In this document: one piece after another, positions 958 to 10,720 of the stretch
Numbering within the stretch: the stretch's first letter is position 1
How the letters are laid out: each line of letters starts with the position of its first letter
Virus genome (UHGV): UHGV-0196030
Strand: one strand, 5' to 3'
Source: a virus
DNA: 11,550 nt
The notes under the pieces: model-generated
Seen by the model: the letters and a program-made list of their open reading frames with translations, nothing else
Databases searched by the model: none
What the model was told of the DNA's origin: nothing
Made by a program: the position numbers and the translations under genes

Positions 958-2067
958 TTGCTGGTCCATCCCAATGGCAGCAAATACTGGCGATTCCGGT
1001 ACTGGATAGACAAGAAAGAGCGATTACAGGCCATCGGGGTATATCCGCTGATTAGCCTCAAGGAAGCCCGCAAACGCGCCACAGAGAGCCGTTTACTGAT
1101 AGCCCAGGGAATTGACCCAATGGAAGAAGCACGCAAGGAGAAAGCCATTGATGCGCTCAACATGGCGGCAAGTTTTAAGACCGTGGCGGAGGACTGGCTG
1201 ACTACTAGGGTGAGCGGTTGGTCAGAGTCCTACACGAAACAGGTCAGGACGGCGCTGAAAAATGACGTTTACCCCGTGCTGGGTAAGCGTTCAATCGTCG
1301 ATATAACCGCCCGTGATGTTCTGGCATTGCTTCAGAAGAAAGAGCGCACCGCGCCGGAGGCGGCCCATAAGTTACGCCAGCGTATCGGGGAGATCTTCAA
1401 ATTTGCCGTTATCACCGAACTGGTTAACCGGAATCCGGTTGCAGATCTGGATACGGCATTGAAAGCCAGACGCCCAGGCCATAACGCATGGATACAAATT
1501 AGTGAAATTCCGGCCTTCTACAAAGCCCTTGAGAGAGCCGGGAGCGTACAGATTCAGACGGCAATACGCTTGCTTATATTGACGGCATTAAGAACGGCAG
1601 AATTGCGAAAAATGCGGTGGGAATGGGTAGATCTGAGCACGGCAACAATCACCCTACCCGCTGAAGTCATGAAGGCCCGCCGACCGCACGTAGTCCCGTT
1701 ATCCCGGCAAGCGGTCGAGCTATTACAGGACCAGTTTACCCGCAGCGGGTACAGTGCTTTCGTCTTTCCGGGCCGATTCATGGATAAGCCATTGTCAGCA
1801 AGTGCCATCCTTAAAGCCCTGGAGCGTATCGGGTACAAGTCGATCGCCACTGGTCATGGTTGGCGGACCACCTTTTCAACGGCGCTTAATGAGTCTGGCA
1901 GATACTCACCAGACTGGATCGAAATCCAATTGGCCCACGTTCCGAAAGGTGTGCGCGGTGTATATAACCAGGCCGCCTACCTGAAGCAACGGCGGGTAAT
2001 GATGCAGGACTACGCGGACGCTATTGTTCTGATATTGGCTGGTGACGGTAATCCGCTGGAACCGTGA
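958..2067 (+). CDS. intZ: P4-family tyrosine integrase (site-specific recombinase); ORF shown from the first in-frame TTG, but N-terminal homology continues upstream to about 868
   Basis: N-terminal arm-binding-type sequence ...KDKPYKLTDSLTPGLFLLVHPNGSKYWRFRYWIDKKERLQAIGVYPLISLKEARKRATESRLL... and C-terminal catalytic region ...HGWRTTFSTALNESGRYSPDWIEIQLAHVPKGVRGVYNQAAYLKQRRVMMQDYADAI (H-x-x-R and catalytic Tyr as in P4 Int). Symbol given by locus analogy to K-12 CPZ-55, not by sequence identity check. Confidence 0.88.
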   Translation: MLVHPNGSKYWRFRYWIDKKERLQAIGVYPLISLKEARKRATESRLLIAQGIDPMEEARKEKAIDALNMAASFKTVAEDWLTTRVSGWSESYTKQVRTALKNDVYPVLGKRSIVDITARDVLALLQKKERTAPEAAHKLRQRIGEIFKFAVITELVNRNPVADLDTALKARRPGHNAWIQISEIPAFYKALERAGSVQIQTAIRLLILTALRTAELRKMRWEWVDLSTATITLPAEVMKARRPHVVPLSRQAVELLQDQFTRSGYSAFVFPGRFMDKPLSASAILKALERIGYKSIATGHGWRTTFSTALNESGRYSPDWIEIQLAHVPKGVRGVYNQAAYLKQRRVMMQDYADAIVLILAGDGNPLEP

Positions 2068-2074
2068 ACTATAA

Positions 2075-2100
2075 GGCCGGATTCGTCCGGCTTTTCTTTC
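2075..2100 (+). terminator. Rho-independent terminator after the integrase gene
   Basis: Stem GCCGGA (2076..2081) / TCCGGC (2086..2091), loop TTCG, followed by TTTTCTTTC, 8 nt after the TGA stop at 2065..2067. Confidence 0.6.
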
Positions 2101-2104
2101 GCTA

Positions 2105-2135
2105 ATTATTCCATTATTCCAATTAAGTGGAATAA
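2105..2135. promoter_or_regulatory. Operator-like site: tandem ATTATTCC x2 followed by a perfect 8-bp inverted repeat TTATTCCA-n6-TGGAATAA
   Basis: ATTATTCC at 2105..2112 and 2113..2120. Inverted-repeat arms at 2114..2121 and 2128..2135 with a 6-bp spacer, in an AT-rich intergenic region upstream of the 2277 CDS. Confidence 0.35.
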
Positions 2136-2214
2136 ATTATTCAATATCAAGAACTTAAATCCATGTTTGCAACGAAAGATCCAGAGTTCGAAAATAGGAT
2201 CAACACAAATAAAA

Positions 2215-2244
2215 GCCCCCGGCATGTTGCAGCATTCCGGGGGC
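2215..2244 (+). promoter_or_regulatory. Stable stem-loop in the putative 5' leader of the 2277 CDS
   Basis: 8-bp GC stem GCCCCCGG (2215..2222) / CCGGGGGC (2237..2244) with a 14-nt loop, about 30 nt upstream of the AAGGAG Shine-Dalgarno. Confidence 0.3.
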
Positions 2245-2276
2245 GGTATGAGAAACAAGCTAAAGGAGAATTTCTC

Positions 2277-2786
2277 ATGTCTGATATGCTAGCAGTAGAA
2301 CAAGAAACAAACAATGATGTTCGTCAATTTTTAAATAAAATTAACGAGTTACGGAATAAAGCACCCAAAAACGAAGAGACTAAACACGAAGAACACACGC
2401 CAGATCATTACGAGGCAAAACAGCAGGAGCAAGCCTGGCGTGGCAACCTGCGCTACCTGGATACATTAAACCGACTTGATGAGGTATTGCCTCGCAAACT
2501 GTACGAAAGGTGGGAGAAAGAACATACAGTCAACGACGAGGCCGTGCTACGCGCCCTTTGCTACTTTGCTGGTACTGGCAAAAACTCACAGTTGGGATGG
2601 TGCAGGGTTGGCAGGGGAACAATCGACAAGCGAGCCAGGCTATCAAAAAACACGGTTAAAAAATGCCTCGATCGTCTGGTCCACCACTTCAAACTGGTTG
2701 AGCGTACTGAAGGCTATATACCCGGATCGGCAGAAAGGGAATGCAACGAGTACCAGCTATTATTCAAGCCGTACAACATGAAATAA
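2277..2786 (+). CDS. Hypothetical protein, 169 aa, with a C-terminal winged-helix-like DNA-binding region (possible replication initiator or regulator)
   Basis: Strong SD AAGGAG (2263..2268) 8 nt before the ATG at 2277; the ORF-track start at 2163 has no SD. C-terminal segment GWCRVGRGTIDKRARLSKNTVKKCLDRLVHHFKLVERTEG looks like a winged helix. Followed by a terminator and an iteron cluster. Confidence 0.55.
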   Translation: MSDMLAVEQETNNDVRQFLNKINELRNKAPKNEETKHEEHTPDHYEAKQQEQAWRGNLRYLDTLNRLDEVLPRKLYERWEKEHTVNDEAVLRALCYFAGTGKNSQLGWCRVGRGTIDKRARLSKNTVKKCLDRLVHHFKLVERTEGYIPGSAERECNEYQLLFKPYNMK

Positions 2787-2794
2787 CGGAATCA

Positions 2795-2817
2795 GGCGGG
2801 CAATGTTCCCGCCTTTT
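2795..2817 (+). terminator. Rho-independent terminator after the 2277..2786 CDS
   Basis: Stem GGCGGG (2795..2800) / CCCGCC (2808..2813), loop CAATGTT, then TTTTCTTT. Confidence 0.65.
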
Positions 2818-2840
2818 CTTTGCCTTAATTCCATGAATTC

Positions 2841-2964
2841 AGGTGGGTCAAAAGTTGCCGTTAAGGTGGGTCAAAAGTTGCCGAGTAAGAATTCTACTAT
2901 TAAGAATTCTAGGCGACGGGAGTTTTTTAGCCTCCCGGTCGGTCATAGAGAGTCGCCTAGAGTT
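2841..2964. repeat. Iteron-like repeat cluster: two identical 20-bp direct repeats, two TAAGAATTCT repeats and a nested palindrome
   Basis: AGGTGGGTCAAAAGTTGCCG at 2841..2860 and 2864..2883, identical, 23 bp centre to centre. TAAGAATTCT at 2886..2895 and 2901..2910. Inverted repeat CTAGGCGAC (2909..2917) / GTCGCCTAG (2952..2960) enclosing hairpin CGGGAG-n9-CTCCCG. Confidence 0.6.
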
Positions 2965-3793
2965 AAAACAGAAGAATTGTTTCGCCGCCTGATAGGTCGG
3001 CTGGTTGCGAGCATTAACCATGCTGATTAGCGCAATCATTTCCAGCAAGCTGGAAACGCCCATTCACTCACGCACAACCTGAACAGCAGACCAACAGAAC
3101 ATCATGGCGATTCGTTCATGGGTAGCGCGGTATATCTCAAATGTGACGCCTCTTGTTGCTGGACCTTCGGAAAACACCATGGAGACGAAAGTATTCAATC
3201 TGGTCTGGCAGCAGGGAGAGCTTCGCTTCGCTCGTCTCCTGGGGCCAATGCTCAATGAAACGACGTAAGGCACGGAGCGCTCACCATAGGCAGACACATA
3301 AACATCTGAGAGCGCACCTTCTATCGCGCTACGCGCTCAATAAAAACCAACGACACCGCCATCCTGCCTGACCGATGTTTTTAACCAGCGTATACAGAGA
3401 AACAGACAATAGCATGAAATCAGCGTATATCCAGGTGCAGACGGCACTATCACACAACGCACAGCAGGCTTAAGTGACCACTCAGGAAACTTTATCCCCG
3501 CCACCGACTAACGCAAACCGTCCTGACCGCGCCAAATTCGAAAGGAATGCTACCTTAAACGCGATTAACACACATAAGCGCCACACTTACTTACCTGAAA
3601 ACTTCACAGCGTCACAGCGCGTTTTAGACACGTTAAAATCGATGCGATTTCATTAAATTTTTTTCACTCGCCTGAATGGTGGCAATCAGGACTGATTGCA
3701 ACATTGCCCCGCCTCGATACTGAGCGCATAATAAATACATACATTAAGCGGAAACGTCATTAACAGATTTGGAAAAACAATGGGTTACACATC

Positions 3794-4414
3794 ATGCGCA
3801 TATCAAAGCAGCAACGCCAAATCCTCGACTATCTGGCAGAAAACGAATCAATCACAGCACGCCAGGCGGCAGATCTCGTTTATGGCGGCAACGTTACCCG
3901 CGTACAGGTCGATGCAGCCCGCCGTTCACTGATGGCGCTGGTCAGCAATGGGCTAATCATGAAACAAGGCCGCGCTTTCGTAGCTGAAAGACATATCAAT
4001 CACGCTTATAGCCAGGACGTTGAAGAGTTGCGCCGTCAGATCCTTTGGGTATTCAGCAAAGAGGGGCAGGACTATCTCATTTCTGAGCGTCCAAATTACG
4101 CCGCCAAAGAGTTAACAGTAAGCGGATTGTCGTGCGCACTGGATTATCTTGTCGGTGAAGGTTGCGTTACTTACAAGCAGCTATGGCACGCCCTGAACAC
4201 GCTTGTAGAAGATGGTTTACTCATTGCCACGCGTGAGAATATCGAATACTGGATAATGCCGCGTTCAGGTCGCCGCAATCATGCGCGGTATATTTCAGGC
4301 AACAAATACAGAACGCCTGACTTTAATCCGACACAGGAAGATCGGGACCGTGCCGAAATGATGTGCAGGGAACGGGAGAAAAGATTCATGGACAAGTTGT
4401 TTTCGATGCGGTGA
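3794..4414 (+). CDS. Hypothetical protein, 206 aa, with an N-terminal winged-helix/HTH-like region (putative DNA-binding protein)
   Basis: Long ORF with protein-like composition. N-terminal ISKQQRQILDYLAENESITARQAADLVYGG...RSLMALVSNGLIMKQGR resembles MarR/winged-helix recognition helices. Weak SD. A strong terminator follows directly. Confidence 0.5.
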   Translation: MRISKQQRQILDYLAENESITARQAADLVYGGNVTRVQVDAARRSLMALVSNGLIMKQGRAFVAERHINHAYSQDVEELRRQILWVFSKEGQDYLISERPNYAAKELTVSGLSCALDYLVGEGCVTYKQLWHALNTLVEDGLLIATRENIEYWIMPRSGRRNHARYISGNKYRTPDFNPTQEDRDRAEMMCREREKRFMDKLFSMR

Positions 4415-4420
4415 ACACAA

Positions 4421-4443
4421 GCGGGCGCAATGCCCGTTTTTTA
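4421..4443 (+). terminator. Rho-independent terminator after the 3794..4414 CDS
   Basis: Stem CGGGC (4422..4426) / GCCCG (4432..4436), loop GCAAT, followed by T6 (4437..4442), 7 nt after the TGA stop. Confidence 0.7.
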
Positions 4444-4583
4444 TTGCCTTATTCCACGTCAGACGAATCAATCTAATCACACCTGAGCAAATGCATTGCC
4501 AAAAATTTAGGCTGTCAGAATGCGTTTTAGCGCGTTTTAAGGGCATCGAATTTTAATTAATTTTGATGCGGTGATTTGCGGGC

Positions 4584-4671
4584 AAAAAAAATCCAGCCGG
4601 AGAGGGCTGGAAATAGAGACATATCGTTGTAGTTATTAACAGATCACATTTTGAGGCTGAGTATTTACCTC
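4584..4671 (-). ncRNA. Putative small antisense RNA (~88 nt) with its own promoter and intrinsic terminator; contains a 14-nt complement of the HNH gene ribosome-binding region
   Basis: Minus-strand promoter-like hexamers: -35 TTGCAC (complement of 4701..4706), 17-bp spacer, -10 GATAAT (complement of 4678..4683). Minus-strand terminator: stem 4592..4598 / 4605..4611 followed by U8 (complement of A8 at 4584..4591). No ORF longer than about 19 codons inside. Contains the complement of 4643..4656, which is identical to 5090..5103 at the HNH Shine-Dalgarno. Confidence 0.3.
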
Positions 4672-4755
4672 ACTAATATTATCGCGCCGTTATGGTGATT
4701 GTGCAAATCATCTCTTCCAATCACAAAAACGTCATATTCGACAATGAAGCCGTGT

Positions 4756-4784
4756 TTGAACACGTAGGACAATGGGAATAAAAT
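4756..4784 (+). promoter_or_regulatory. Candidate sigma70 promoter for the alpA-HNH operon
   Basis: -35 TTGAAC (4756..4761), 17-bp spacer, -10 TAAAAT (4779..4784). Predicted start near 4791, about 90 nt upstream of alpA. Confidence 0.4.
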
Positions 4785-4823
4785 AATTACATAGGGTTTT
4801 TCTCTTGGCCTATTTTTTCATTC

Positions 4824-4868
4824 AGCGGCGGTTGTTTTTCTCCATATTTCCAGCCGCCGCTCCTTTTC
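4824..4868 (+). promoter_or_regulatory. Leader hairpin with a short U-tract upstream of alpA (possible attenuator)
   Basis: Stem AGCGGCGG (4824..4831) / CCGCCGCT (4854..4861), 22-nt loop, followed by CCTTTTCG, then the alpA SD GAGG at 4872..4875. Confidence 0.3.
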
Positions 4869-4883
4869 GAAGAGGTGATGAAA

Positions 4884-5075
4884 ATGAACGACTTTCCCGA
4901 ATTGATAAGCTGCGAACAAGTCGCTCGACTTTTTTGTGTAAGCAAGCGCACGATTCTCAGGTGGGTAGATAAAATCCCCGGCTTTCCAATCCCTGTAAGT
5001 CCTGAAGGAACCCCGCTCCGCTTTATTCGCAGCGAAATTCTCGAGTATTTCTACAGAGGGCACAACCATAAATAA
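4884..5075 (+). CDS. alpA: AlpA-family phage transcriptional regulator / excisionase-like HTH protein (about 63 aa)
   Basis: Small protein with the AlpA-like pattern ...LISCEQVARLFCVSKRTILRWVDKIPGFPIPVSPEGTPLRFIRSEILEYF. SD GAGG at 4872..4875, 8 nt before the ATG at 4884; in-frame GTG 4875 and ATG 4878 sit too close to the SD. Symbol is family-level. Confidence 0.7.
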   Translation: MNDFPELISCEQVARLFCVSKRTILRWVDKIPGFPIPVSPEGTPLRFIRSEILEYFYRGHNHK

Positions 5076-6779: not shown

Positions 6780-6808
6780 CAGCGTGCTAACGGGGGGTTA
6801 ATCGCCCC

Positions 6809-6858
6809 TTAGCGATAGCTTAGCTAACTGTTAGTGAGCCTTAGCGACATCTTAGCGA
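6809..6858. repeat. Five helically phased iterons TTAG(C/T)(G/T)A immediately upstream of the terS-like gene (candidate packaging or protein-binding array)
   Basis: TTAGCGA 6809, TTAGCTA 6820, TTAGTGA 6831, TTAGCGA 6841, TTAGCGA 6852: spacing 11, 11, 10, 11 bp. Preceded by a G-rich hairpin-like GGGGGG-TTAAT-CGCCCC at 6792..6808. Confidence 0.55.
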
Positions 6859-6878
6859 CAGTTTAACCGGGGGTAAAT

Positions 6879-7283
6879 GTGGAGACTGAAGATAAAGAAA
6901 TCAATAACTTGCCTGTAAATGGCAACAGGTTAGCGAGAAAAAGGGCCAAATATACCATCGCGCTGGCGGAAGAAATTTGTTTGTTGGTAGCGGAAGGCCA
7001 TAGCCTACGTGAGATCGCGAAGATGCCAGACATGCCATCGTTACGCACTTTAATGCGGTGGCAATATGAACATCCAGATTTCAGAGAGCACATCGGTATT
7101 TTTAAGTGGATTCACGCCCAGGACGCAGCAGAGCAAGCTGTTGAAGCTATCAGAGATGTAGATCTGGAAGCGGAAGACGCGCCACTGAAATTAAAACAGG
7201 CTGAGGCATTAGCCCGCACTTTGTTAGGTCGTGCCAAATTGCTTGAGAGCAAAAACAATCCATTCAACGGGGGTGACAAATGA
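6879..7283 (+). CDS. Phage terminase small subunit (TerS)-like protein, 134 aa, GTG start
   Basis: N-terminal HTH region KYTIALAEEICLLVAEGHSLREIAKMPDMPSLRTLMRWQYEHPDFREHI matches the pattern I recall for TerS-family proteins (Y-T-x-E-L-A-x-x-I-C...G-x-S-L-R-x-I...M-P-S-x-x-T-x-x-R-W). G-rich SD at 6868..6872. Confidence 0.55.
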   Translation: METEDKEINNLPVNGNRLARKRAKYTIALAEEICLLVAEGHSLREIAKMPDMPSLRTLMRWQYEHPDFREHIGIFKWIHAQDAAEQAVEAIRDVDLEAEDAPLKLKQAEALARTLLGRAKLLESKNNPFNGGDK

Positions 7284-8120: not shown

Positions 8121-9966
8121 ATGAGTGGAAATCTTGGGACCATTTACTATGAGGTGGACGCCCGCACGGGTAAGCTACTGATGGCACAAGAAGAAGCGAA
8201 TCAGGCTTTTGATGCCATTGAGCGTGGCGCAAAACGTGCTGATAACGGCGTCAAAAAACTGAATACGCAGATGACCAAAACGTCTGCCGCAGTAAAATCA
8301 AATTTCTCATTTGCAATCAAAAACGCATCCTACCAGATAGCAGACCTTGCTACACAACTTCAGATGGGCGGTAATGCCATCCAGGTCTTTGCCGTTCAAG
8401 GGGCGCAGCTTGTCGCTGCATTTGGTACTGGCGGTGCGGTCATGGGTGCGGTCATGGCTATTGGCGGGGCAATTGCCAACAGCCTTACGGATAACATGGA
8501 TGACGCCACGGATAGAAAAATACATTGATGCGCTACTCCGCTACAGCAACGAGGTGCTAACAGCAGAAGAGCGTCAAACGGCGTTAAACGAGGCACTGAA
8601 TGCTGGGGCGTCTGCGGCAGCAATTGCCACTGGCGAAATGCTGATTAAACAGGAGCAGATCAAGCAAGAGAAGCTAAAAGGCAATGAGAACGCTGCGCTT
8701 GATATGGCGCTGGCTGAGGGCAAGTTAACGAAGGCGGATCACGATAGGCTTGTCCAGATGCGAGAAGAAACAAAGGAATTGGAGGAGAACAAACGCAAGG
8801 AAGAAGAGAACGCCAGGGAGAAAGAACGAGCAGCCAAACAGGCAGAAAGCGCGGCGAAACAGGCGGCGAAACAGGCGCAACGCGAACTTGAACAGCTTCA
8901 GAAACGCGGGCAAGGTGTAGCTGACAAGTACAACGTAGAGGGCGCAGCACAGCGTAAACTAAAAGAAGACCAGGAAGCGCTAAATGCAGCAATGGAAGCT
9001 GGCAAAATCAGCACAGAACAATATAACGCAGCGTGGGCCGGACTCCTGAGAACGGAGGCGCAACGCAAACAGCAAGCCGGATGGGATAATCTTGTCAGCC
9101 GGGAAGATAAGCTAAAAGGCCGTGTTGACCCAATCCAGCAGGTGATGAACGAATGGAATGTTCGCAAGCAAATGATGCTCGATTTAGGCGTCACTGAGGC
9201 AACCATGCGGCAAGCAGAGATCGACCACAAAGAACGAATTCTTAACCTTCAGTGGCAGCAATGGCAGGCGCAAAGCGATACTAACGCGCTTGTAGGTAAC
9301 ATGATTGATGGCCTCGCTTCCGGTGCTGGTAGCGCATTTACCGGACTGCTTAACGGATCTCAATCGTTCCAGGAATCACTTGCTAACATCGGAACGACCA
9401 TTATCAACCAGGTTGTTGGAAGCCTTGCGCAGATGGGGGCGGAATACGTTAAACAGCTTGTTATGGGTGAGGTTGCGCAGAAATCAGCCTCCGCATCAGC
9501 TACTGCAACGGCAGCGGCAACAGGCGCATCAATCGCATCATCAATGGCCCCAGCAGCAGCGGCGACAGCAACCGCGACAATGGGTACGGCCCCGATGGTG
9601 GCGATGTCTGCGATGTCGGCATTAATGACTGGCATTACAAGCCTATTTGGCGGACGTCGCTACAACGGCGGCGCGGTTAATGGCGGCAATATGTATCGAG
9701 TCGGTGAAAACAAAGTACCTGAACTATTCCAGACCAATAACGGACGGCAGTACATGATTCCGGGTGAGAATGGTCGCATCATTCCTGGTCGTGATATTGG
9801 TGGCGGTAACGTTAGCATAAACGCGCCTATAACCGTTTACCCACAAAACGGTTGGACCGAACAGGATAGCAAGGCATTGCAGCAGACGATTGAGAATACA
9901 GCGATGCGGTTGATGCAGAGAGAATCAACCAGGCCGGGCGGAATGCTCCAGGGTCGCCGCCGTTAA
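8121..9966 (+). pseudogene. Lambda gpH-like tail tape-measure gene, split by a frameshift near 8516..8528 into 8121..8528 and a second frame running to 9966
   Basis: N-terminal part (...YQIADLATQLQMGGNAIQVFAVQGAQLVAAFGTGGAVMGAVMAIGGAIANSL) resembles the lambda H region FTDVATQLAGGQSPWLILLQQGGQV. Downstream frame has coiled-coil KEEENAREKERAAKQAESAAKQAAKQAQRELEQLQKRG and a Gly/Ala/Thr-rich C-terminus ending GGMLQGRRR (lambda H ends GGLFSGGGR). The two frames are offset by +1, with an A5 run at 8516..8520 just before the frame-0 stop. No other tail genes are present. Confidence 0.6.
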
Positions 9967-10260: not shown

Positions 10261-10431
10261 TACCATCATTATTAAATCTATTAATAATCATCAAACCATA
10301 ATTAGCACAACTTATAATCGAGCAAAAATCACACAACCTTGATAAGTTGAGCTAATGGCTATATGTTTTTCTGATGAAATCCTAATGGCGAAAACTTGCG
10401 ACGATACCGAAAAAACCGCGAAAATTGAAGT

Positions 10432-10541
10432 GTTCTTTCTTTTTTTGTTTTTTATTTTTTTATTTTCTCTTTTTCTTCTCTTTCCGGTTCTCTTCTTTTT
10501 CTGGTTTTGGTTTTTTCCTTTTTTATTTTTATTCTTTCTTC
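10432..10541. repeat. Polypyrimidine (T/C-rich) low-complexity tract of about 110 bp; polypurine on the minus strand
   Basis: GTTCTTTCTTTTTTTGTTTTTTATTTTTTTATTTTCTCTTTTTCTTCTCTTTCCGGTTCTCTTCTTTTTCTGGTTTTGGTTTTTTCCTTTTTTATTTTTATTCTTTCTTC; strongly pyrimidine-biased, with only scattered purines. Confidence 0.7.
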
Positions 10542-10687
10542 AGGGTTGTGCTAAAACACACCAAAACATTTTCGCCACAAAAGCGTTAATTTCATCCTGC
10601 CAGACCATTCACTTTCACCGGATACACAGCCGGATATATTCCCACTAACACCCCACCACCCAGCGCCACGCCTGATAACTACCGTAT

Positions 10688-10720
10688 TCAGGAAGGAAAT
10701 GCGAGTGATTTCACCGTCAC
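10688..10720. repeat. Right junction: the genuine eutA 3' end, partner of the imperfect repeat at 685..717 (attR-like)
   Basis: TCAGGAAGGAAATGCGAGTGATTTCACCGTCAC includes the eutA stop codon (TCA on +, TGA on minus). See the left-junction repeat. Confidence 0.45.

Follow-up and report, generated by a model that had tools for sequence, protein, structure and literature searches.

The 11,550-nucleotide stretch of DNA analyzed here (UHGV virus genome UHGV-0196030; hereafter, the window) contains an island of the CPZ-55 family, whose chromosomal insertion site lies between eutB and eutA of Escherichia coli. Our subject is a small module within that island: the gene yffL (positions 2277-2786, + strand), which carries this name in E. 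coli K-12 and encodes a protein of 169 amino acids, together with the tandem repeats behind it. We propose that yffL encodes a minimal replication initiator and that the repeats belong to the iteron origin of an island resembling a satellite, a reading to which we assign a probability of about 0.5. In this model, the island of about 10 kb would be a cryptic prophage or a phage-satellite-like element, and the C-terminal winged helix of YffL would recognize phased 23-bp iterons downstream of its own gene, which, with the adjoining A+T-rich repeats and a palindrome, would make up an iteron-type origin. Iteron-bound YffL might then distort or open the neighboring A+T-rich DNA, and the conserved N-terminal part of the protein would recruit, from the host or a helper phage, those replication proteins that are absent from the island. 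A two-hairpin leader would probably, and a small antisense RNA possibly, keep yffL expression low.

The repeats proposed as YffL sites are two tandem 23-bp units on the + strand (2838-2883) with the core GGTGGGTCAAAAGTTGCCG, and lie about 59 nt 3′ of the yffL stop codon. A preliminary description of this region, made from the sequence of the window, had singled out two identical 20-mers (2841-2860 and 2864-2883) as unlikely to arise by chance, and this was borne out: two matches were obtained in 0 of 200 shuffled sequences, and in the 23-nt register (2838-2860 and 2861-2883) the two copies agree at 22 of 23 positions. Other E. coli strains also retain the 20-mers, in varying numbers. Window positions 2050-3100 are 100% identical to E. 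coli MB19 and 91.6% identical to K-12 MG1655; the window has two repeat copies, PCP06102 three, K-12 and DEC9B four, and SW070919 and C3 five to six, degenerate copies included, so that copy number differs between strains in steps of 23-24 bp over a range from 2 to about 6. Because of these steps, and of indels of 1-2 nt in the conserved DNA flanking the repeats, the repeats must be non-coding, which excludes the overlapping open reading frames at 2803-3030 (+) and 2848-3063 (−) and disposes of the concern that the repeats might lie inside a conserved coding gene. In loci whose YffL proteins are 73-82% identical, the core GGTGGGTCAAAAGTTGCCG is retained and the non-coding segment 2787-3140 is about 95% conserved, above the yffL coding sequence itself. 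Head-to-tail direct repeats, a phasing of about two helical turns, a variable number of copies, and an A+T-rich stretch next to the array all speak for an origin; iteron origins have at least two direct repeats of about 17-23 bp. The repeats further have a terminator on one side and the next promoter region on the other, a poor setting for operators.

Protein types and their downstream repeats

We compared the slot 3′ of the integrase gene across related islands at the eut site and at a second chromosomal site, ychJ/purU. This slot holds at least seven protein types, and each allele is followed by a terminator, tandem repeats, and an A+T-rich stretch, with an apparent hairpin beyond. The arrays lie 55-94 nt after the stop codon and comprise 2-6 tandem repeats at a spacing of 22-24 bp (sometimes 30-41). 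Six distinct repeat units occur among the at least seven types (GGTCAAAAGTTGCCG, ATCCCGAAAATCGGTA, CCCCCACCAAATTTGGGCTAC, CCCTACCCCAAAATGACCT, ACGTGTGACATTTGGGATAC, and AACTCGTTATCATTCTGAGCAC), and the seventh type (locus L025) has a unit that nearly matches the one at L020. For individual alleles, the unit is ACCCCCACCAAATTTGGGCTAC in four copies behind the proteins of 169/193 amino acids, ACCCTACCCCAAAATGACCT in five behind that of 190, ACGTGTGACATTTGGGATACAGGT in four behind those of 257/259, AACTCGTTATCATTCTGAGCAC in five to six behind that of 253, and GACCCCCACCAAAAATTGGCTAC in two behind that of 263. In NT1N34, the slot protein has 255 amino acids and is 28% identical to YffL (BLASTP, 2e-11); the terminator is the same as that of yffL, and two copies of ATCCCGAAAATCGGTA follow, spaced at 23 bp and as far from the stop codon as the repeats in the window. 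For about 170 nt beyond these repeats, the DNA is A+T-rich, unrelated to the window, and equipped with a palindrome of its own, and homology to the window returns near 3040. In the pair formed by the window and locus L017, the terminator between gene and repeats is common to both, but the protein (28% identity) and the repeats differ.

Since distinct units accompany distinct slot proteins at an equivalent position, we infer that YffL recognizes the repeats behind its gene, and it very probably binds them. As had been suspected of the 20-mers in the window, the downstream repeats thus behave, across alleles, like cognate sites. We compared winged helices with units by category, because free-end-gap alignment of such short units yields spurious values of 100% and makes a numeric correlation invalid. 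L020 and L028 have identical winged helices and one unit in common, and L020 and L022 are 86% identical, with differences located around the predicted recognition helix and a modified unit. At a query cover of at least 80%, gene plus repeats were found in 233 genomes and the repeat region alone in 236, which gives no sign of uncoupled gene/repeat pairs.

In four loci (L004, L005, L015, and L016), a single extra iteron, AGTCAAAAGTTGCCG, lies at about −117 to −120 from the yffL start, where it takes the place of the promoter −35 region; these are YffL variants with the type-B upstream element (see below). By analogy, this would be the usual arrangement for autoregulation by an initiator. No such promoter-region iteron is present in the window or in K-12.

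In YffL itself, an N-terminal helix spans about residues 10-27, residues 28-52 are a disordered acidic linker, and the C-terminal part (55-169) is a winged helix. An AlphaFold model built from an alignment of five sequences reached a predicted local distance difference test (pLDDT) score of 37 and became usable after distant alleles had been added to the alignment, with an overall pLDDT of 73.8 and values above 90 for residues 55-169. As modeled, this domain contains the three-helix bundle, helix-turn-helix, and β-hairpin wing of a winged helix, so that the model, together with fold searches, agrees with the earlier guess at this fold. In an alignment of 34 allele sequences, the N-terminal segment is common to the alleles (its consensus is ..SEKKSA.DIVNELRSK.. 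and YffL has ..VRQFLNKINELRNK..), the linker is acidic, rich in Pro/Gln, and optionally extended by an insert of about 80 amino acids, and the C-terminal domain varies. Compared with L021 and L027, the L025 protein has an N terminus of 81-90% identity but a winged helix of 32% identity; judging from such alignments, the N- and C-terminal parts of the slot proteins evidently recombine independently.

The sequence-family matches point toward replication. YffL matches replication-initiator families of PHROG over residues 71-167 (5e-4 to 7e-4). Among eight alleles, six match PHROG families for replication initiation, O-like proteins, or DnaD-like helicase loaders (best 1.4e-9), and four match the "replication initiation O-like" families. 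The Pfam family HTH_36 (PF13730) is matched by 4/8 allelic relatives (best 4.6e-10) and not by YffL itself. One allele shows weak similarity to a phage "replication initiation protein" and to RepL encoded by Salmonella plasmids of 2.6 kb. The earlier hint at a Rep-type protein thus found its counterpart in the allelic relatives. As for classical initiator families, Phage_rep_O (PF04492) gave at best an E value of 0.088 in one allele and no match to YffL, Rep_3 matched neither YffL nor its alleles, and RepA_N was matched by fold only. A PDB sequence search with YffL returned no match.

In the collections searched, both protein and repeats are narrowly distributed. A word-indexed sequence search with YffL gave 10 matches with almost nothing outside E. 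coli, and an exhaustive search with a hidden Markov model over 1.84 billion representatives also gave 10 matches, among them one distant relative, P0014 (246 amino acids). This protein, encoded within 4224-5043 of a contig from Logan assembly ERR4405827, is the only distant relative that these searches returned outside the E. coli allele set. Its gene is preceded by an integrase gene and an HTH_17 gene in the same orientation and followed by a terminator, after which an apparent first iteron, CCTACCCTTCAAATTTTGG, appears just before the contig ends. In the phage collection, YffL had no match and the L020 allele two weak ones only; of the iteron arrays compared with that collection, one gave a weak chance match (E = 0.08) and a second none. 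In the plasmid collection, the YffL match was limited to a copy of the whole CPZ-55 island. A pattern scan for two cores found no match in viral contigs and, with one genome per species, a true match in E. coli only. The other five pattern matches are unrelated coding or tandem repeats that share the 13-mer TCAAAAGTTGCCG by coincidence; they come from metagenome-assembled genomes of Ferruginibacter, Clostridiales, Waddliaceae, Oribacterium, and Selenomonadaceae and have no other similarity to the window. We also considered RNA immunity of the P4 type (seqA/seqB/seqC) and rejected it, as no sequence complementary to the repeats is present elsewhere in the window.

Leader of yffL and the DNA beyond the repeats

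All the features that the preliminary description had listed, namely, the tandem ATTATTCC pair, palindromes, leader stem-loop, coding sequence, terminator, 20-mers, and the pair of TAAGAATTCT repeats, were found at the positions it gave. This includes the start of yffL at ATG 2277. RefSeq places the start at ATG 2163 (207 amino acids; 213 in K-12), but the stretch translated before M39 of this longer form is not conserved in a protein alignment with a 73%-identical variant, AGGAGA lies 6 nt 5′ of ATG 2277, and each of the other alleles begins at the corresponding ATG, with a homologous leader before it. We therefore favor 2277 over 2163. The RefSeq extension (2163-2276) would span the conserved leader hairpins. 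The reading frame of yffL is intact across divergent variants. The gene ends in an intrinsic terminator (2794-2822, + strand), whose hairpin AGGCGGGCAATGTTCCCGCCT at 2794-2814 is followed by the T-run TTTTCTTTG; the L017 allele, 28% identical, has exactly this terminator behind it.

Upstream of the gene, the window carries what we call the type-A element (2105-2143): a tandem pair of ATTATTCC (2105-2112 and 2113-2120), a perfect 8-bp inverted repeat (TTATTCCA at 2114-2121 and TGGAATAA at 2128-2135), and a third ATTATTC. Because at least two copies of ATTATTCC occurred in 15 of 200 shuffles, the pair alone is weak evidence; it is nonetheless conserved in relatives. Two further types of upstream element exist, B with a 25-nt and C with a 21-nt inverted repeat. 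Type A precedes four different protein alleles, and the three types assort independently of the protein allele. The proposal that YffL has operators of its own on both sides does not survive this comparison: the element in the window contains no iteron-like sequence and, since element types combine freely with protein alleles, it is not an operator of YffL itself. It is probably the site of another regulator. The intZ-yffL spacer of K-12 is bound in vitro by the nucleoid protein Dan (PMC2887951), and a chromatin immunoprecipitation peak of FNR has been located in the 5′ end of yffL. A σ70-like candidate promoter for yffL (2167-2195, + strand; TTGCAA, 17 nt, GAAAAT; 8/12 matches) is weak and falls below the threshold of the promoter scan, and the block is conserved in other alleles.

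The leader stem-loop pointed out earlier is real and conserved, but it is better read, from sequence comparison, as part of a two-hairpin translational control region than as a lone stem-loop. The first hairpin (HP1, 2215-2244) has an 8-bp G+C stem (GCCCCCGG at 2215-2222 and CCGGGGGC at 2237-2244) around a 14-nt loop. The second (HP2, 2248-2278, + strand), formed by ATGAGAAA and TTTCTCAT, holds the Shine-Dalgarno sequence AGGAG in its loop and the start codon at the foot of its stem. HP1 folded together with the Shine-Dalgarno hairpin has a z score of −4.6. Both hairpins are kept in all alleles, and six predicted pairs show compensatory changes, for example, TGGGA/TCCCA in HP2. The HP1 loop is exactly inverted between the window (2223-2236, CATGTTGCAGCATT) and K-12 (8150-8163 of locus L002, AATGCTGCAACATG) with the stem unchanged, the mark, as far as the two sequences tell, of a template switch or loop inversion mediated by the hairpin. 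Rfam returned a single sub-threshold match, to NsiR1, on HP1; we regard this identity as an artefact of the terminator shape.

In all alleles, a run of A precedes HP1 on the + strand, so that the minus strand reads the hairpin followed by UUUUAUUU, which gives HP1 the canonical shape of an intrinsic terminator on that strand. It is tempting to speculate that a hypothetical antisense RNA of about 75 nt (2205-2281, − strand), made up of a hairpin with an anti-Shine-Dalgarno loop and the HP1 terminator, covers the translation start of yffL. The minus strand in codons 2-5 carries a TTGCCG-like −35 element, 18 nt, and TGGTAAAAT (TGGTAGAAT in L025), resembling a promoter of the extended −10 type, in 7/7 "MNILP" alleles examined; in the window, there is an extended −10-like TGCTAGCAT within codons 3-5, weaker than those of the other alleles. 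The accessible part of the supplements to a p19 double-stranded RNA data set contained no yffL entry that we could find.

On the far side of the array, the A+T-rich stretch of the window (2884-2910) contains two TAAGAATTCT repeats with a 15-nt period (2886-2895 and 2901-2910) and is a candidate DNA-unwinding element. The pair is weak alone (8/200 shuffles) but conserved in relatives. Every allele measured has such a stretch after its array, with 62-85% A+T, and it often consists of two or three short tandem repeats (L024 has three copies of AATTAATATACA and L025 two of TACGGTTTTA). A nested palindrome follows (2909-2960), with outer arms CTAGGCGAC (2909-2917) and GTCGCCTAG (2952-2960) and inner arms GGGAG (2918-2922) and CTCCC (2932-2936) around T6 (fold z = −3.9). 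Near this position, some other alleles show, by eye, inverted repeats of different sequence, whose arms are paired inconsistently in minimum-energy folds.

Next comes a strongly conserved non-coding block (2961-3140) with indels that are not multiples of 3. Its last approximately 100 nt (3039-3140, CCAGCAAGCTGGAAA...GGTATATCTCAAA) open with the palindrome TTTCCAGCAAGCTGGAAA and are near-invariant in loci where the adjoining genes are 73-82% identical; they are also present with the L017 allele. A covariation test of the non-coding DNA from 3030 to 3175 showed none, the block being nearly invariant and hence uninformative. A simple, crude scan found no σ70-like promoter on either strand between 2787 and about 3600. 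Farther downstream, the non-coding region 3372-3661, about 80-91% identical and common to many more E. coli genomes than yffL, contains direct repeats (3383-3407 and 3418-3442) and, in or just behind it, promoter-like sites (3611-3639 and 3704-3732), and probably serves to control the operon downstream.

The surrounding island

In the annotated neighborhoods of MB19 and K-12, the gene order runs from eutB through the tyrosine integrase gene intZ, yffL, and small genes to eutA. The 8-bp target duplication TCAGGAAG, described earlier for CPZ-55 (PMC6379469), is present in the window at 685-692 (attL side) and, as the right copy, at 10688-10695, from which the island measures about 10 kb. The integrase gene of the intZ type (817-2067, + strand; RefSeq annotation of the MB19 locus) encodes the Pfam domains Arm-DNA-bind_3, Phage_int_M, and Phage_integrase, and its terminator, read from the sequence, is a hairpin at 2076-2091 (+ strand) followed by TTTTCTTT. 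A Pfam search recognized three further island genes, for an HNH endonuclease, a protein resembling the small terminase of Sf6 (TerS-like), and a tape-measure protein. An unannotated open reading frame for 66 amino acids (4875-5075, + strand), just 5′ of the HNH gene, resembles HTH_17 of the AlpA/excisionase type (E = 3e-5, below the Pfam cut-off), and homologues of it are annotated in related islands. PICI-like satellites measure about 7-20 kb between att repeats and carry packaging-redirection genes, a replication module, an AlpA-type regulator, and an integrase, but neither capsid nor lysis genes. The integrase, TerS-like, HNH, and tape-measure genes of the island, this sub-threshold HTH_17 reading frame, and the att duplication 10 kb apart could suit such a satellite. 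A primase, a helicase, or another Rep, including a Pri-Rep, is encoded neither in the window island nor in any related island variant examined, in keeping with what had been reported for the window; the yffL/repeat module is therefore the only candidate for a replication function.

The CPZ-55 family is present in 408 of 5,426 complete E. coli genomes (about 7%). In the related islands at ychJ/purU (L005 and L022), the slot gene and its repeats stand at the right-hand end, the slot gene is preceded by a 68-bp remnant of the 3′ end of int, and the structure of the module is kept. Since it is intact there beside the int remnant, the yffL-type module appears to have moved or been rearranged as a unit.

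The window island carries one pseudogene and a deleted tape-measure gene: relative to MB19 (15466-15991 of locus L001), 525 bp inside this gene are missing at window positions 8513-8515, which splits it into open reading frames 8121-8528 and 8347-9966. Three copies of an 18-nt repeat, CCTTAGCGATAGCTTAGC, lie at 6807-6867, directly 5′ of the Sf6-type TerS-like gene (6879-7283), and are a candidate recognition site for packaging (pac or cos). Near the right end of the island runs a long T/C-rich tract of low complexity (10425-10549), in a region of 36-38% G+C. A conjugative IncFIA/IncR plasmid of Klebsiella pneumoniae, pHK02-026 (NZ_KY751926.1), holds at 5488-11962 a complete CPZ-55 of the K-12 version, from intZ to yffS and with identical protein accessions. 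This copy is flanked by ISEc23 and the mph(A) cluster; it may have been genuinely captured or may be an artefact of assembly or of a transconjugant.

Origin, operators, or other sites

Several observations weigh against an initiator with its origin. YffL itself reaches no Pfam threshold in a profile search, the initiator signal in Pfam and PHROG comes from its allelic relatives and covers the DNA-binding domain only, and YffL has no known helicase-loading domain. In fold searches, the regulators MarR, ArsR, CRP, and CodY come closest to its winged helix, and the fold resembles transcription regulators (MarR, CRP, and CodY) at least as much as initiators. The winged helices of L020 and L025 are 53% identical and yet their units are almost equal, so that the mapping of proteins to units is not strictly one to one; the correspondence between protein and site would, moreover, fit a repressor with its operators equally well. 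The A+T-rich stretch of the window, with 27 nt and 62-65% A+T, is short and modest, whereas other alleles reach 70-85%. No DnaA box (at most one mismatch) and no IHF consensus occur in window positions 2787-3800 or in the matching regions of five of seven other loci, L022 and L025 having one-mismatch DnaA-box matches only, and no GATC cluster lies near the repeats. Ori-λ is not known to have DnaA boxes either, and DnaA and IHF sites are not universal in origins. For CPZ-55, a study of the K-12 mobilome saw no extrachromosomal activity, and excision is rare.

The most serious alternative is that YffL regulates transcription, either as a repressor of the immunity type or by activating the island, that the repeats are its operators, and that the alleles are types of immunity or regulatory specificity, comparable with lambdoid repressor/operator pairs or with Stl of SaPIs. 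Beyond the fold and the protein/site correspondence, this is consistent with the position of yffL next to int, a frequent one for master regulators of satellites, with the match of one allele class to HTH_Crp_2, and with the extra promoter site of some alleles, which would suit autoregulation. YffL also shares its small size with the MarR, ArsR, and CRP regulators. These proteins, however, are dimers with dedicated dimerization helices and act on dyad operators that overlap promoters, usually in fixed number, whereas the YffL sites are direct, strictly phased repeats, 2-6 in number, directly 3′ of an intrinsic terminator and in promoter-free surroundings, the next promoter-like sequence on either strand being some 700-750 nt away in the crude scan. 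In addition, the top sequence-family matches are replication initiators, and the upstream elements and translational leader of yffL would suit a limited, induced product better than a constitutive maintenance repressor. We thus consider regulation a possible but doubtful role.

It is rather unlikely that the repeats are instead a cis-acting site for packaging (pac/cos), partition-like clustering, or recombination directionality, with YffL as an architectural protein. Head-to-tail direct repeats are indeed targets of small winged-helix proteins, among them Xis and proteins that bind centromeres, the TerS-like and HNH genes imply a packaging step, and the module adjoins int. The repeats, however, are separated from the attL core by about 2.1 kb and from attR by about 7.8 kb, which is more than sites of the arm or Xis type would allow, and the module keeps its structure in the ychJ-site islands, where int is reduced to its 68-bp remnant; together, these two observations rule out arm-type and Xis sites. 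The three 18-nt repeats before the TerS-like gene are the better pac/cos candidate, no ParA-type partner is encoded, and the HTH_17 reading frame at 4875-5075, elsewhere in the island, is of the AlpA/Xis type. Very improbable, finally, is that the repeats are a functionless slippage duplication and yffL an inactive relic of a decaying prophage. CPZ-55 of K-12 is indeed truncated and nearly inert, copy-number variation is expected from replication slippage, and the pseudogene and the deleted tape-measure gene of the window island speak of decay, but the arrangement recurs with unrelated repeats behind at least seven protein types, the non-coding segment is better conserved than the coding sequence, and yffL remains intact across divergent variants.

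An initiator with its iteron origin can also be set beside known replication systems. The ori iterons of λ and of Stx phages are ATCCCTCAAAACGAGGGA and TTCCCCTAAAATGAGGGA (PMC7466680), and in ori-λ they are followed by an A+T-rich region (PMC3349717). YffL-type units resemble these iterons in having G+C-rich arms around an A4-5 tract. In both systems, the iterons adjoin A+T-rich DNA and vary in number among relatives (four in λ, six in Stx phages); a domain of the winged-helix type recognizes iterons of 18-20 bp in λ; and the DNA-binding domain covaries with the iterons, the rest of the protein being exchangeable. In contrast to the YffL iterons, which lie 3′ of the gene and beyond its terminator, ori-λ is located within the O gene. 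The O protein has its DNA-binding domain at the N terminus and binds P through its C-terminal domain, whereas the order is reversed in YffL, which has only about 50 residues besides its DNA-binding domain and whose island encodes no P-like loader.

With the Pri-Rep systems of SaPIs and PICIs, the module shares an iteron array, putative here, immediately 3′ of the initiator gene and a specificity that, for YffL, is probably allele-dependent, and phage satellites resemble the island in being integrase-bearing elements of this size with packaging-redirection genes, those of the island being predicted. The Rep proteins of SaPIs and PICIs, however, have helicase and primase domains, and YffL has none. 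The PLE satellite of Vibrio cholerae is not known to encode any replication protein besides an origin-binding initiator, RepA, and borrows the replisome of its helper; YffL is proposed to be, likewise, an origin binder without a replisome of its own. Iteron plasmids (RepA/Rep_3, π, TrfA, and RepL) also combine a winged-helix protein with phased direct repeats of about 22-23 bp and adjacent A+T-rich DNA. They have iteron-like promoter sites for autoregulation, comparable with the site in the four loci with an extra iteron, and commonly control rep by antisense RNA or at translation, as hypothesized for yffL. Unlike them, YffL has a single winged helix in place of the tandem WH1-WH2 of Rep_3, and its island is chromosomal, with no partition or copy-control loci and no DnaA boxes near the repeats. 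The module hence differs from all three of its closest analogues, lambdoid O/ori, satellite Rep/ori, and iteron plasmids, in its C-terminal DNA-binding domain, its remainder of only about 50 residues, its origin-like DNA outside the gene, and the lack of an enzyme or loader.

Taking these ideas further, we tentatively suggest, as a possibility we hold well below an even chance, that CPZ-55 islands are an unrecognized family of E. coli phage satellites; in the literature searched, no paper links CPZ-55 to phage satellites or to replication. Their sole replication function would be an "origin tag" of about 170-260 amino acids, in which a conserved N-terminal helix recruits the replisome of helper or host and a swappable winged helix is passed on jointly with its iteron cassette (seven or more types, with six distinct units). 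A small antisense RNA pairing with the Shine-Dalgarno loop would throttle this tag, and the diversity of types would keep co-resident eut and ychJ islands free of cross-talk.

The gene yffL is among those of E. coli K-12 that have remained without a function, and in 2025 YffL still had the status of a hypothetical protein. Our analysis proposes a testable role for it, as a sequence-specific binder of a 19-bp unit and probably as an origin-binding initiator. If the regulator model were true instead, the alleles would together define new immunity types. If yffL and its repeats are an initiator and its origin, CPZ-55, so far regarded as a "grounded," inert prophage, would be a decayed member of a family that resembles satellites, and its relatives would offer a natural set of six or seven orthogonal pairs of small proteins and DNA sites, usable as parts. 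The family would then provide, besides PLE, a further satellite that encodes the recognition of its origin only and borrows everything else.

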